Origin: a virus
Lineage: Duplodnaviria > Heunggongvirae > Uroviricota > Caudoviricetes
Length of the DNA stretch: 4,755 nucleotides
Strand: one strand, 5' to 3'
Virus record (IMG/VR): IMGVR_UViG_2609460218_000013
Under the pieces are notes generated by a model. The model did no database searches. It was not told where the DNA came from and saw only the letters and a program-made list of their open reading frames with translations. The translations under genes were made by a program, and so were the position numbers. The stretch's first letter is position 1. Each line of letters starts with the position of its first letter. Positions 259 through 4,106 of the stretch are shown here, one piece after another.

Positions 259-474
259 TTACTCTCCCCGTGCAGCCTTACGCTTGTCTTCTTTAATCTT
301 GAAATAAAGGTTTGTCAGATACGTCAGCATGCCAAATACCAGACTACCCAATACACCTATTGCCGCCCACTGTGAGGGCGTGACTTTATCGAGCAACTGT
401 AAAAACCAGTAGCCAGCACTGCCTGCAGAGGTGCTGTAGGCGATGCCCGTTGTTAACTTATCCATGGATTTCAT
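259..474 (-). CDS. Class II holin / pinholin, phage 21 S21 family (EssD/EssQ-like), 71 aa
   Basis: Translation [71 protein letters not shown] matches the S21 pinholin family in length and sequence: two TM segments, a small-residue-rich first TM, a charged C-terminal tail and the Met1-Lys2-Ser3-Met4 dual start. Strong SD GGAGGTGAGG (486..477) sits 7 nt upstream of the ATG at 474..472. The 99-aa track ORF (259..558) is an upstream over-extension with no RBS. Confidence 0.9.
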
Positions 475-564
475 AGCCTCACCTCCGCAGATAACGGATG
501 GTGTACACGGTTTGGTTCGAAGAAGGAAAGAAGTTACATTAGCGTAAGGCCCGAACATCTATTC

Positions 565-596
565 AAAAAGAAAAACGCCAGCAATTATTCTGGCGT
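565..596 (-). terminator. Rho-independent terminator downstream of the AraC-like gene
   Basis: Perfect 7-bp inverted repeat ACGCCAG (575..581) / CTGGCGT (590..596) with an 8-nt loop. On the reverse strand the hairpin is followed by TTTTTCTTTTT (+ strand A-run 565..575). It lies about 68 nt past the AraC-like stop at 665. Confidence 0.55.
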
Positions 597-664: not shown

Positions 665-1380
665 CTAAGAAAATCTTGATAAATATTGGTGCGGAGGCAC
701 ACCAAAATATCCTCTAAAAACACTTACAAAATATGATGCATTGTCATACCCGCATATTCCCGCCACCTTGCCGACAGTATGGTTACTGTAGATCAATAAT
801 CTTTGCGCCATCATCATTCGTTCTTCAAGAATTAATTTACTAAACGATAATCCTTCGTCTTTTAATTTTCTTTTTAACAAACTCTCGCTCATATATAATC
901 TTGAAGATATATCACAAAGTCTCCATGACGCTGAGATATCCGAGTGAATAATAGCCTTAACTTTACAACCTAAGCTATTAAGACTTCCGAACAAAAAACT
1001 TTGCACTATTTTCTCTGAAGATAAGACAGCAAGACATGCAAGTGATATTTGATTTCTAACTACATCCACGGTTTTGCTATCACAATTCAAGCATGCAACC
1101 AAGTTCTTTAACAATGAAAAATCTTCACATTCTACTATCAAGTATGACGGATAAAACCTTCTTACAGAAAAAGGATGAGAGTGTGTAGTTTTTAAAGAAA
1201 ATCATTAACTGTTTTCTCCTCAACATCTACGATCATTAGATGATCTGTATTTGACGAAAAAAGATCTTTTAAATTGTATTCAATGAGAACAGCATTTCCT
1301 TTTTTAAACAAAATATCTTCTTTACCAATTCGGACACCAAACGAGTTCAACACCAAAATGATAGAACATATGTATGGCAT
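665..1380 (-). pseudogene. AraC/XylS-family transcriptional regulator (AppY/EnvY-like), disrupted by a -1 frameshift
   Basis: Two track ORFs in different frames (1192..1389 and 665..1141) together give an AppY-like protein of about 238 aa. The N-terminal part (MPYICSIILVLNSF...ILFKKGNAVLIEYN...LMIVDVEEKTVNDF) aligns with the AppY N-terminus; the C-terminal part carries the AraC-type HTH (WRLCDISSRLYMSESLLKRKLKDEGLSFSKLILEERMMMAQRLLIYSNHTVGKVAGICGYDNASYFVSVFRGYFGVPPHQY). The frames join if one T is added to the reverse-strand T4 run (+ strand A4 at 1198..1201), changing NDFL-stop into NDFSLKTTHS. Likely start is ATG 1380..1378 (SD AGGTGG 5 nt upstream) rather than the GTG at 1389 used by the track. 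Confidence 0.75.
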
Positions 1381-1880
1381 ATTATCCACCTGATATCATT
1401 GGGGTTACACCAGGTAAGTATAGGTGGAAAATCAATATTCGCCAGTTCAACAATAAGGAAAATCTCATTGCATCACAACTATAAAACCATGTGTTTAACT
1501 CCAGTTATCGCTCGCCACGGGAATATCTGCGGCAGCAGGCCAGTAATGGGTTAAGTGATAACAGGTGTCTGGAAATATAGGGGCAAATCCAACTCACAAA
1601 AAACAAATCATTAAACTAATCTGTTATATTATAATATCTGCGTGCAATAATAATATTATATGCTCTTAATATTCACTTGAAATATCTTCATATAAAAACA
1701 GATTGAATAAAATCTTTTGGGGCTGGTATGTTTACCAACATTAAATTGCATCTCAATGTTTTCTTTAGCGTGAACAGGATTTTTATAAAAACTGACACTA
1801 TGAGCATCATAGCGTAGTTTTTACGATTGTAAATATCCTGCATACAGGAACTCATCACTTTCAGATGATATCGCATACAG

Positions 1881-2840
1881 TTAATTCACCATCAGTCTTA
1901 GAGCCAGTTCTTCCGGATAGGGATCGAAGTAATTCTGTGTAAGCAAGTAATCATTAGGATACTCACCCAGATAATGCTTCAGCAGAGTCAACGGCGCAAG
2001 AAGAGGCAATGTGCCAAAGCGATAGTTAAGTATAACCTCGCTCAACTCTTTACGCTGGCGTGTACTTAAGTAATTACTAAAATACCCCTGTATATGCATC
2101 AGCACATTCGTGTGATTTTTACGTGATGCTGGTTTTCTGAGAATCGCCATCAGATTATCACGATACACCTCAAAGTATGATTCAAGGTCCGCCCACTCGT
2201 GTATTGCAGCCACAAATGGTCCCATATCTTTATAGCCTGCCTGGCTATGCGCCAACAACTGAAGCTTATAACGACTATGAAAAGCTAATAACTCTCTTCT
2301 TGATAATTTCTCCTTGTAAAGGTGATTGAGCTCATGCAAAGCAAAAACTCTTTCAATAAAATTCTCACGAAGCACTGGATCATGTAATCGCCCATCCTCT
2401 TCAACCGGTAGCCAGGAAAACTTTTCCATCAAAGTGCTCGTAAATAGTCCCACTCCATCTTTACGACCTCGATTACCATTTTCATCATAGACACGCACGC
2501 GCTCCATGCCACAGCTGGGAGATTTAGCACAAACCACAAACCCCGATACATCCTTTAATTTGTCCATATAAGAACGACTAAACTCTGTCATTCTCTCTGT
2601 CACATCCTCATTCTGGTCGTGGCTGAAACATATCCGTATATTTCCTTGCTTCGAGCGCACAAGTCGTAGAGCAGGACGCGGAACTGGCAGCCCTATAGCC
2701 ATTTCCGGACATACTGGTCTGAATGTTACCCATTCCACTAATTTGTCCATTAAAAAGTCATCTCTTTTGTGACCACCATCAAAACGAACAGCAGAACCGC
2801 CCAAACAACCGCTGATCCCAATCACAGGTTTTTTTATCAT
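1881..2840 (-). CDS. DUF523-DUF1722 fusion protein (TudS/RudS-like [4Fe-4S] thiouracil/4-thiouridine desulfidase family), 319 aa
   Basis: Intact 319-aa ORF with SD GGAGG (+ strand cctcc, 2843..2847) just upstream. The N-terminal ~150 aa has Cys12, Cys44 and Cys104 (GISGCLGG, PVCPE, VVCAKSPSCG), spaced like the three cluster-ligating cysteines recalled for TudS-type DUF523 desulfidases, plus nearby Glu46 and Ser107/109. The C-terminal ~170 aa is alpha-helical and basic/aromatic-rich, consistent with a YbgA-like DUF1722 domain. Domain calls are by recall, not profile search. Confidence 0.8.
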   Translation of the reverse strand: MIKKPVIGISGCLGGSAVRFDGGHKRDDFLMDKLVEWVTFRPVCPEMAIGLPVPRPALRLVRSKQGNIRICFSHDQNEDVTERMTEFSRSYMDKLKDVSGFVVCAKSPSCGMERVRVYDENGNRGRKDGVGLFTSTLMEKFSWLPVEEDGRLHDPVLRENFIERVFALHELNHLYKEKLSRRELLAFHSRYKLQLLAHSQAGYKDMGPFVAAIHEWADLESYFEVYRDNLMAILRKPASRKNHTNVLMHIQGYFSNYLSTRQRKELSEVILNYRFGTLPLLAPLTLLKHYLGEYPNDYLLTQNYFDPYPEELALRLMVN

Positions 2841-3032
2841 TTCCTCCCCCTTGACTAATTCATTAACACATAAACTTTGTAGTGCACGGACTAAATTGCC
2901 TTTCTGGCTTCATCACTGACAATTTTTCTGTTATTGACTATTCCTAATATAGTAGGAAAGTTCTTTAAGTGATCGGTCGTACTCATCTATCTTTCATACT
3001 TACTCTCAACTATCAAAAGTACAGGATTTATT
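2841..3032. promoter_or_regulatory. Divergent intergenic / promoter region between the desulfidase-like gene (-) and the lipocalin gene (+)
   Basis: 192-bp non-coding spacer between divergent start codons. Contains a direct repeat of TTGACTA (2851..2857 and 2934..2940), a -10-like CATACT (2995..3000) about 30 nt upstream of the lipocalin ATG, and AGGA (3023..3026) as its RBS. No confident -35/-10 pair could be fixed by eye. Confidence 0.3.
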
Positions 3033-3557
3033 ATGAAGTTATGGCCTGTGTTGACTGGCATTGCACTCTCTTTCACTCTTATAGCATGTAAGGCCCCGAC
3101 ACCACCTAAAGGTGTGCAGCCGATTACAAATTTTGACGCCAACCGCTACCTCGGAAAATGGTATGAAATAGCTCGCCTCGAGAACTGGTTCGAACGTGGT
3201 CTGGAACAGGTCAGCGCTACTTATGAAAAACGGAACGACGGAGGGATTCGCGTACTTAACCGTGGATACGATCCAACGAAAAACAAATGGAGCGAGAGCG
3301 AAGGTAAAGCATACTTTACTGGAGATACTAAAACTGCAGCGTTGAAAGTTTCGTTTTTTGGCCCCTTCTATGGTGGCTATAATGTAATCAAACTGGATGA
3401 TGAGTATAAGTATGCTCTTGTCAGTGGTCCGAACAGAGAATACCTATGGATTCTGGCAAGGACCCAAACTATTCCAGATAATGTAAAAGCAGACTATGTG
3501 CGTACCGCTCAAAAGTTGGGATTCAATGTCAATGAACTATTATGGGTTAAACAATAA
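3033..3557 (+). CDS. blc: Outer-membrane lipoprotein of the bacterial lipocalin (Blc) family, 174 aa
   Basis: N-terminal lipoprotein signal with lipobox (MKLWPVLTGIALSFTLIAC, Cys19). Lipocalin motifs are present: FDANRYLGKWYEIAR (GxW), GKAYFTG, LKVSFFGPFYGGYNVI and YLWILAR. Roughly 55-60% identity by eye to E. coli Blc over the full length. Only + strand gene in the window. The symbol denotes the family; this is a prophage-borne copy, not necessarily the chromosomal blc locus. Confidence 0.9.
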   Translation: MKLWPVLTGIALSFTLIACKAPTPPKGVQPITNFDANRYLGKWYEIARLENWFERGLEQVSATYEKRNDGGIRVLNRGYDPTKNKWSESEGKAYFTGDTKTAALKVSFFGPFYGGYNVIKLDDEYKYALVSGPNREYLWILARTQTIPDNVKADYVRTAQKLGFNVNELLWVKQ

Positions 3558-3585: not shown

Positions 3586-3612
3586 AAAAAAACCAGCCTT
3601 TGGGGAGGCTGG
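3586..3612 (-). terminator. tR'-like rho-independent terminator downstream of Q (reverse-strand orientation)
   Basis: Perfect 7-bp inverted repeat CCAGCCT (3593..3599) / AGGCTGG (3606..3612) with a 6-nt loop. On the reverse strand it reads CCAGCCT-CCCCAA-AGGCTGG followed by TTTTTTT (+ strand A7 at 3586..3592). It lies about 100 nt downstream of the Q stop at 3713, where lambdoid phages place tR'. There is no U-run on the + strand side, so it is unidirectional. Confidence 0.65.
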
Positions 3613-3671
3613 CTAAATCAGGAAACAAGCTGTTATATGATAATAACTACGTTGCGATTCCAACATTTAAA

Positions 3672-3712: not shown

Positions 3713-4089
3713 TTATTTCGAACAATCAGCATCCATCTCCAATCGGAGATCCAACACCATCAGCATGCCCTCCACTACGCCCTCAGCTTTCTGGAGCATC
3801 CTGCCAACCCAACAATCAGATCGCCCATGCTTACGTGCAAGCGCCATAAAAGTCATGCCGCCGACATAATAGTCCACCAATAAATCATGTAAATCGCTGT
3901 TGTTTTTTTCAGGCGAGCCATACATTCACAAATGATCATCGCGTCATCGTCACAGCATTGCGGACGAGATCTTACTTTTGAAGGAATTAATCCCTTAAAA
4001 CCGGCGGCAATGGACGACCAGGTCACATCTTCATGATTATTAGCCGCCCATGCCCCCCAACGCTCAAGAACCATCTGAATATCACGCAT
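3713..4089 (-). pseudogene. Phage antitermination protein Q (short QuuD-type, ERWGAW motif), disrupted by a -1 frameshift in an A7 tract
   Basis: Two overlapping track ORFs (3853..4104 and 3713..3925) in frames offset by one. The N-terminal part ([62 protein letters not shown]) has the LERWGAW signature of the Q antiterminator family. The C-terminal part is [63 protein letters not shown]. They join into about 125 aa if the reverse-strand A7 run (+ strand T7 at 3903..3909) were A8. Likely start is ATG 4089..4087 (GGAG 7 nt upstream), not the TTG at 4104. Confidence 0.7.
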
Positions 4090-4106
4090 CAACTTACTCC
4101 ACAAAA

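Follow-up and report, generated by a model that had tools for sequence, protein, structure and literature searches.

A lipocalin–rudS gene pair in the cargo site of lambdoid coliphages and its MerR-linked chromosomal relatives

What brings a gene for an Fe-S enzyme and a gene for an outer-membrane lipoprotein together, head-to-head, in a lambda-like phage, and does a single control region serve them both? The question is raised by 4755 bp of viral DNA (IMG/VR record IMGVR_UViG_2609460218_000013; the whole of this stretch is called the window here), in which the initial annotation had described two intact cargo genes facing away from each other across a 192-bp spacer, an Fe-S desulfidase of the DUF523 plus DUF1722 family and an outer-membrane lipoprotein lipocalin. 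It had also suspected that their linkage might be conserved and that a TTGACTA direct repeat in the spacer co-regulates them. Both open reading frames (ORFs), the length of the spacer and the two family assignments (by Pfam) were borne out (Table 1), as was the conservation of the linkage, while the shared control element fared poorly. We conclude that the pair is probably the core of a three-gene cargo cassette of lambdoid phages, its adjacency having been inherited from a bacterial chromosome and the regulator gene and operator having been lost.

Identity and linkage of the two genes

The product of the minus-strand gene carries both domains of a TudS–DUF1722 fusion, PF04463 at residues 7–149 (137 bits against a cut-off of 34.7, E 6e-40) and PF08349 at residues 192–309 (136.9 bits against a cut-off of 22.5, E 4.8e-40), and it matches phrog_3275 over its full length. 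It is 91.5% identical to gp66 of Escherichia phage 1H12, which is RudS_vir. Residues Cys12, Cys44, Cys110, Glu46, Arg55, Ser107 and Ser109, all invariant in the RudS alignment, correspond to the [4Fe-4S] ligands Cys12/44/110 of RudS_vir and to the catalytic residues Glu51/Arg60/Ser111/Ser113 of RudS_KT (PMC11417400). RudS was defined as TudS fused to DUF1722 by Jamontas et al. (NAR 2024, PMC11417400), in whose study RudS overexpression cut tRNA 4-thiouridine (s4U) 4.7- to 26-fold and shortened the growth delay caused by ultraviolet A (UVA). Every variant tested there lowered tRNA s4U, RudS_vir having the lower activity among them, and the paper places RudS genes in operons that respond to light and are controlled by MerR/LitR regulators, where photolyase or LitR regulators accompany them. 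Judged by its sequence, the desulfidase of the window is RudS, a predicted tRNA s4U desulfidase, and its gene is called rudS below.

The product of the plus-strand gene passes the NCBIfam model NF007786, 'outer membrane lipoprotein Blc' (312.6 bits against a cut-off of 267), matches phrog_2809 over its full length and aligns over its entire length with E. coli Blc of known structure (3MBT and 1QWD; E about 1e-66, 8e-67 for 3MBT). Since a lipobox, MKLWPVLTGIALSFTLIA-C19 (L-I-A-C, Cys19), can be read directly from the translation as well, the protein is predicted to be a Blc-type, periplasm-facing outer-membrane lipoprotein. Blc itself is a stress-induced lipoprotein of this topology, with lysophospholipids and heme or hematoporphyrin as its reported ligands (PMC8177097).

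Neighbourhood comparison showed that the two genes travel together in phages. Lipocalin and rudS stand side by side in 79 of the 80 IMG/VR contigs, the exception being truncated, and the spacer measures 192 bp in 77 contigs and 191 bp in one. The full order Q (antiterminator), lipocalin, rudS, araC (AraC-type regulator), holin is found in 72 of the 80, and the AraC gene is complete in 74. Upstream of Q, the 72 full-order contigs fall into two backbones, 36 with ydfU and 36 without it; since half of the contigs thus have a different gene at this place, the cassette is one that moves between backbones. Among isolated phages, the same organization is seen in IdasGreatGrand (97%) and in the Lambda_2E9/1H12 group (91.5%), where Q is followed by the lipocalin gene (minus strand), a 192-bp spacer, rudS (plus strand), araC and holin. 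In phage 1H12 these genes are gp64 (Q), gp65 ('Lipocalin Blc'), gp66 (rudS), gp67 (an AraC-like gene) and gp68 (holin).

In E. coli, the pair region is matched in 1151 of 5426 complete genomes, and at least 80% of it is held by 1047 (~19%). This prevalence contradicts the remark of Jamontas et al. (PMC11417400) that E. coli lacks RudS, made in a paper that mentions neither prophages nor lipocalin. With the addition of 15 of 27 assessable chromosomal loci (see below), the linkage suspected in the initial annotation is conserved well beyond the window, and in these chromosomal loci the pair recurs in at least six different flanking contexts, so that the adjacency is not peculiar to this locus.

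Several individual loci deserve mention. In the B-derived strain E. coli B-DolR (L171:3001-5221, NZ_CP117044.1), an IS3 element splits rudS, and the lipocalin, Q and AraC genes are intact. Proteus myxofaciens (L072:6373-12754) presents a second, independent prophage context, in which a DUF968 gene, Q and a gene for a 475-aa protein are followed by a rudS homologue (57% identity), an ADP-ribosyltransferase-toxin-like gene and two small secreted-protein genes, with no lipocalin gene. This context indicates that rudS entered the region downstream of Q more than once. Two contigs of metagenome-assembled genomes, labelled 'Candidatus Nanosynbacter' (L036) and 'uncultured Clostridiales' (L013), contain rudS loci of enterobacterial or E. 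coli-prophage type (92% and 73% identity) and are probably mis-binned.

Chromosomal relatives and their operator

A chromosomal scan of Enterobacterales, with one genome per species, yielded 80 rudS loci, which ORF clustering divided into two paralogous contexts. In the first (52 loci, 56–63% identity), rudS is followed by a photolyase gene and lies next to kdp, and a lipocalin gene was found within 10 kb of none of the 52. The second (28 loci, 67–75% identity) is the phage gene's own group, and nearly all of its loci have a gene for a MerR regulator with the Pfam domains MlrA_helical and MlrA_C, which, where a lipocalin gene is present, usually separates it from rudS. A divergent lipocalin gene lies 0.1–7 kb away in 15 of the 27 assessable loci of this group, its product being 73–80% identical to the phage lipocalin, and in 12 of these 15 the spacing between lipocalin and merR is 112–118 bp. 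The loci come in a long form, in which rudS closes an operon (SnoaL-like, SDR, amine-oxidase-like, DUF1365, CFA-synthase-like, DUF2878 and DUF3833), and a short form consisting of merR, a transthyretin-like gene and rudS. Serratia rubidaea shows the same lipocalin/merR/rudS arrangement. The genes on the left flank differ in at least six ways, indicating that we are dealing with a module and not with one inherited neighbourhood.

The short loci (L018–L025, L035 and L046) have between merR and rudS a gene for a secreted protein of the transthyretin/HIUase family. Downstream of rudS, an AAA_21 ATPase gene is present in many Enterobacter-type loci.

The chromosomal loci of this group also have an operator in common. 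The motif T(G/A)(G/T)ACA-N12-TGT(G/C/A)(T/C)A has one exact match per locus in 26 of the 28 loci (L009–L035, L046), compared with three matches in 1.01 Mb of control loci. Every one of these matches falls in intergenic DNA shortly after merR, ahead of the gene that opens the rudS operon (for instance at L018:9945-9968), and the motif fits both the class II LitR consensus T(G/A)TACA-N12-TGTA(C/T)A (PMC9758184) and the sites of E. coli MlrA and BluR (PMC3509220). A TTGGAC / TAAGTT promoter overlaps it. The two loci without the operator are a truncated contig (L015) and that of Kluyvera cryocrescens, which has no merR. In the latter, lipocalin and rudS are directly head-to-head, 115 bp apart (L031:9886-10000), with neither merR nor operator, as in the phage. 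The Kluyvera pair is flanked by yejH-like and yejK-like genes, and its spacer has sigma-S-like -10 elements on both sides, CTACACTTAA toward the lipocalin gene and TCTATGCTTTA toward rudS.

Upstream of the chromosomal lipocalin genes, alignment revealed a different signature, consisting in order of the block TCTCAATATACTACGAAT, (G/A)ATGAAG and TGCACTACACTTAA. The consensus sigma-S -10 region is CTAYRCTTAA with a C at -13. The element TGCACTACACTTAA looks like such a stationary-phase (sigma-S-like) -10, which would fit the stress-phase expression reported for blc (PMC8177097). Read in this way, the sequences describe the ancestral lipocalin and rudS genes as neighbours with separate promoters.

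As to why an Fe-S enzyme and a lipoprotein should be found together, our best reading is that they belong to a common set of light- and oxidative-stress genes rather than to a shared pathway. In Stenotrophomonas maltophilia, a lipid-modification operon under sigmaE-ChrR ends in a lipocalin gene whose expression is up 165-fold in a chrR mutant (PMC11832516), and the long enterobacterial rudS operons, with their lipid-modifying enzymes, resemble that operon.

The 192-bp spacer and transcription of the phage pair

The TTGACTA repeat described in the initial annotation is indeed present in the phage spacer. One could therefore picture a single 192-bp control region, in which the repeat, as a binding site or as a pair of -35 elements, co-regulates two genes that are head-to-head, the more so as TTGACT resembles a -35 hexamer. 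However, two copies in the window are at the level of chance (0.69 expected; at least two in 27 of 200 shuffles), a -10-like hexamer sought at 15–19 bp was found for neither, and copy 1 lies in the rudS leader. Furthermore, each copy is mutated in at least one sister phage allele that has both genes intact, copy 2 to TGGACTA in L089 and L090 and copy 1 to TCGACTA in L089, and the chromosomal spacers have no TTGACTA counterpart. Chance expectation, the missing -10 partners and the lack of conservation in the sister alleles led us to reject TTGACTA as a -35 element or operator, and we regard a shared control region built on it as improbable in the extreme.

Nor does the chromosomal operator have a counterpart in the phage. 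In the spacer, no match to the enterobacterial MlrA/LitR consensus with two or fewer mismatches was found; the best site, TGCACT-N12-TGTTAA (2863–2886), has four mismatches in 12 positions, is at about chance level and was rejected as a surviving operator. A gene for a MerR (MlrA/LitR-type) regulator was sought in the window, and no such ORF or Pfam match was detected. The step from head-to-head geometry to one shared operator is not supported, since the chromosomal relatives have separate promoters and the phage spacer is without the operator. Because the lost regulator belongs to the MlrA family (MlrA_helical plus MlrA_C), and because MlrA and BluR of E. coli bind GTACA-type sites like the chromosomal rudS operator (PMC3509220), the orphaned genes might have passed to host regulators of this family, either MlrA or the blue-light-controlled BluR/BluF pair. 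Against this stand the mismatches just described, about 0.5 sites as good as the one at 2863–2886 being expected by chance in 192 bp by our estimate, and we consider such host control very unlikely.

What does remain in the spacer points to the chromosomal lipocalin. An 18-bp palindrome (TTCCTAATA/TAGTAGGAA), central in the spacer and conserved among alleles, is by alignment the positional counterpart of the block TCTCAATATACTACGAAT in the chromosomal lipocalin–merR spacers, with nhmmer matches on both strands. Candidate promoters at the palindrome are ATCACT-16-TATATT on the minus strand and TTTTCT-18-TATAGT on the plus strand. The signature GATGAAG-N21-TGCACTACA, in which TGCACTACA occupies 2878–2886, matches the window once and none of 200 shuffles. 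In the chromosomes it is found on the lipocalin strand, once per locus and just 5' of the lipocalin gene, and in the many phage copies that have it, it is on the rudS strand. A profile of the chromosomal lipocalin-upstream regions, searched with nhmmer, likewise has its best window match at the signature, on the minus strand. The rudS-facing -10 reads CTACAAA in the window, CTACACA in L089 and, in complete form, CTACACT (L090, 91.5% allele). On the side of the lipocalin gene, a candidate -10 region (TTTCATACTTAC) is at the same distance from the ATG as TGCACTACACTTAA is in the chromosomes. With a lipocalin-type signature facing rudS, co-regulation of the two phage genes by a route other than a shared operator is possible.

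How could a lipocalin-type signature have come to face rudS? When 121 bp (2878–2998) are un-inverted, the score of the lipocalin-upstream profile rises from 4.7 to 14.3 bits and the match becomes contiguous, the best breakpoints lying exactly there. Random inversions reach 11.9 bits, which weighs against this inversion, and the rudS-upstream profile matched the spacer in neither its native nor its un-inverted form. We put a promoter-swapping inversion of these 121 bp at somewhat less than an even chance; an inverted duplication around the palindrome is a hypothetical alternative. An origin by one or the other is moderately supported, and both are kept as hypotheses only, because of the scores of the random inversions and because pairwise alignments between the spacer and the chromosomal intergenic regions were not significant (z at most 2.1).

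The last of these results also weighs against the reading of the pair that we prefer (see below), as do several others, which we set out together. The signal of homology in the spacer came from the profile and exact-motif approaches only, and the nhmmer profile match is marginal (E 0.085 in the window). The spacer is under at most weak extra constraint: its identity between the window and the 91.5% allele is 89.6%, barely above that at fourfold sites (79% in rudS, 89.5% in the lipocalin gene). In the commonest allele, the rudS-facing -10 is defective, and every promoter assignment in the spacer has been read from sequence. On the chromosomal side, the lipocalin gene is absent from 12 of the 27 assessable loci, so that the linkage is frequent and not obligatory; because the species are related, the 15 loci with a lipocalin gene cannot be counted as 15 separate events. 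The chromosomal lipocalin genes showed no operator upstream, so that co-regulation of lipocalin and rudS is conjectural even in the chromosomes.

Two further explanations were weighed. Since rudS points the same way as Q and the lysis genes, with a tR'-like terminator ahead of it, it might lack an effective promoter in the phage and be essentially a late gene, transcribed like stx only by Q-dependent read-through following induction, its head-to-head geometry being incidental. The scan of the spacer for sigma-70 consensus promoters, which found none on either strand, accords with this, as do the lack of a recognisable chromosomal operator-type promoter there and the defective -10 of the common allele. 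However, rudS is intact in the window, where Q is broken, and is present in 19% of E. coli genomes, suggesting a benefit to the lysogen, and a lipocalin-type promoter signature faces it. We think it rather unlikely, on balance, that rudS is expressed in this way alone. Alternatively, the YdeO/GadX-like AraC regulator of the cassette could control the pair, making of the three genes a self-contained module of regulator and targets. Its gene accompanies the pair in the 72 full-order contigs as well as in the isolated phages, the 18-bp palindrome of the AT-rich spacer is conserved, and the related AraC-like regulators PatE and PsrA/B of prophages are active transcription factors (PMC10877973). 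Against such control, no chromosomal locus with the pair has the AraC gene, its GC content (31–35%, compared with 41–47% for the pair) suggests a separate origin, it is frameshifted in the window while the pair is intact, and the targets of its known relatives are acid-resistance and secretion genes of the host rather than neighbouring genes (PMC10877973). We judge this explanation improbable.

The reading that we prefer, an adjacency inherited from the chromosome and freed of its regulator, would run as follows. The cassette comprises a blc-like lipocalin gene, rudS and the gene for a YdeO-like AraC regulator, and in lambda-like coliphages it lies after Q and the Q terminator and before the lysis genes; RudS would strip the sulfur of s4U, a near-UV-sensitive tRNA base. 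The adjacency would not have been made by the phage: in the ancestors, the lipocalin gene would have been divergent from a merR of the MlrA/class II LitR type, with rudS downstream behind the operator. Regulator gene and operator are gone from the phage copy, and this would have left two genes head-to-head across 192 bp, in a spacer that would descend at least in part from the divergent lipocalin/merR promoter region, with the palindromic core and the lipocalin-type signature remaining and the signature now pointing at rudS. In lysogens, lipocalin and rudS would be read from separate, back-to-back stationary-phase (sigma-S-like) promoters. In lytic growth, Q-modified polymerase would pass the terminator at 3591–3614, traverse the lipocalin gene in antisense and transcribe rudS and araC before reaching the lysis genes, so that the lipocalin gene, opposed to the late operon, would be expressed in lysogens only, like lambda bor. 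As Q and araC are both frameshifted in the window, only the lysogen type of expression could operate there.

Phage setting and relation to known systems

The window comes from a Qin-like lambdoid E. coli prophage, of which it represents the late-regulatory and cargo region. Read on the minus strand, the order is DUF968 gene (ydfU, cut by the end of the window), Q, a strong intrinsic terminator, three cargo genes and holin. This prophage is decaying, and the pair occupies its Q-to-holin cargo site. Some part of the window is matched by 5388 of the 5426 complete E. coli genomes, and at least 80% of it is held by 325. L001, an intact relative prophage with the order Q, lipocalin, rudS, araC, holin, is 99.9% identical to the window. 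Compared with it, the window has lost 1 bp from Q and gained 1 bp at each of two places in the AraC-type gene; rudS and the lipocalin gene are intact. The pair is found between Q/tR' and the lysis genes in L001, L089, L090 and L172, as befits lambdoid cargo, and this cargo is dispensable for the phage backbone, being present in only ~19% of E. coli genomes though 5388 match part of the window.

Table 1. Positions of the features discussed, numbered from the first nucleotide of the window
Feature	Position	Strand	Basis or remark
Holin gene, essD / P21 S type	259..558	-	Pfam PF04971 and L001 annotation; first lysis gene downstream of cargo
YdeO/GadX-like AraC-family regulator gene, third gene of the cassette	665..1389	-	Pfam HTH_18/HTH_AraC; frameshifted, 1-bp insertions at 1175 and 1198
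IS2/IS3-family end remnant, 94 bp	1497..1590		insertion relative to L001, between araC and rudS
rudS, TudS (DUF523) and DUF1722 fusion, 319 aa, intact	1881..2840	-	Pfam PF04463 and PF08349
Divergent rudS/lipocalin spacer, exactly 192 bp	2841..3032		genes face away from each other
TTGACTA, copy 1	2851..2857	+	in rudS leader, between candidate -10 region and Shine-Dalgarno
Lipocalin-type promoter signature (predicted)	2878..2914	-	oriented toward rudS
TTGACTA, copy 2	2934..2940	+	abuts the 18-bp palindrome
18-bp AT-rich palindrome	2941..2958		inverted repeat; -10-like hexamers on both strands
Candidate lipocalin -10 region	2992..3003	+	weak, not significant alone
blc-like outer-membrane lipoprotein lipocalin gene, 174 aa, intact	3033..3557	+	Pfam Lipocalin_2 PF08212, 146 bits, E 7.5e-43
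Intrinsic terminator, tR'-like, 9-bp stem, U7	3591..3614	-	downstream of Q; cargo beyond it
Antiterminator Q gene	3713..4104	-	Pfam PF06530, split over two ORFs; 1-bp deletion in T run at 3902 relative to intact L001

The remaining features of the window call for brief comment. The indels at 1175, 1198 and 3902 are all single-base changes in homopolymer runs and could reflect real decay or homopolymer sequencing errors. The closest NCBIfam similarity of the AraC-type gene is to YdeO, below the cut-off. Ends of IS3-family elements in 3346 plasmid records match the 94-bp remnant, and full IS2 copies are annotated inside the matched region of relatives of the window. A terminator-like hairpin with a T run (575–596, minus strand) lies in the gap between the AraC-type gene and holin, and late transcription must pass it to reach the lysis genes. 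Structured RNAs and tRNAs were sought in the region and none was found, the sole Rfam match being the hairpin of the terminator downstream of Q, below threshold.

Every part of the cassette comes from a known family, a phage RudS has already been assayed, and in other respects this is an ordinary lambdoid cargo cassette. In the searchable literature we found no link of RudS to prophages or to lipocalin. Four things seem not to have been described there: that the lipocalin neighbour is conserved, that the enterobacterial loci have a single-copy operator, that the phage has lost regulator and operator, and how prevalent the pair is in E. coli. A prophage rudS–blc pair region in ~19% of complete E. 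coli genomes, with rudS broken in a B-derived strain, matters to measurements, in strains other than K-12, of tRNA s4U, UVA growth delay or solar disinfection, and the disruption in B-DolR is relevant to laboratory B strains used in tRNA work. For the enterobacterial MerR/LitR-type stress loci, the lipocalin neighbour is a candidate additional member, and the phage copy amounts to a natural experiment in which genes have been cut loose from their regulator.

A bolder idea, which we hold with considerable doubt, is that the cassette is a phage-borne module for protection against near-UV (sunlight). RudS, present in lysogens and raised further by late transcription once UV has triggered induction, would erase photo-crosslinkable s4U8 from host tRNA, and translation, hence phage production or growth of the lysogen, would escape the UVA growth delay and the stringent response. 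The Blc-type lipocalin would act in the envelope as a binder of lysophospholipids or photosensitising porphyrins, and the swap or inversion of promoters in the spacer would have moved rudS from light to stationary-phase control. If this were true, a prophage would set about one-fifth of E. coli strains apart from K-12 in their near-UV physiology.

Comparison with known systems places each part of the pair. The window rudS shares with RudS_vir (1H12 gp66) the two-domain architecture, the length of 319 aa, Cys12/Cys44/Cys110 and the genomic slot with its lipocalin neighbour; its allele (97–100% type) is the commoner one in E. coli, and its activity is assigned by homology. With E. coli Blc (1QWD, 3MBT), the lipocalin shares the Blc model, the lipobox, the length and an alignment over its whole extent, while it is a phage-borne extra copy that is closer to the rudS-linked lipocalins of Enterobacter and Leclercia (78–80% identity). 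Its gene is not next to ampC, the neighbour of blc on the K-12 map. The MerR (MlrA/class II LitR) loci include phrB-litR-rudS in Pseudomonas, ORF242-ORF319 in Salmonella and merR-rudS in Enterobacter; the chromosomal relatives of the pair are loci of this kind, whereas the phage copy is without the regulator and the operator. A lipocalin gene as divergent neighbour of the regulator is mentioned in neither PMC11417400 nor PMC9758184.

The Q-to-lysis slot itself is familiar from other phages. Stx phages carry the Shiga toxin genes there, as this cassette is carried, and lambda bor is a lipoprotein gene that runs against the late operon. Like stx, rudS lies downstream of Q and tR' and is co-oriented with late transcription; like bor, the lipoprotein gene of the window is opposed to it. 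In contrast to both, the cargo of the window concerns stress physiology, namely tRNA de-modification and the binding of lipids or porphyrins, and not a toxin or serum resistance.

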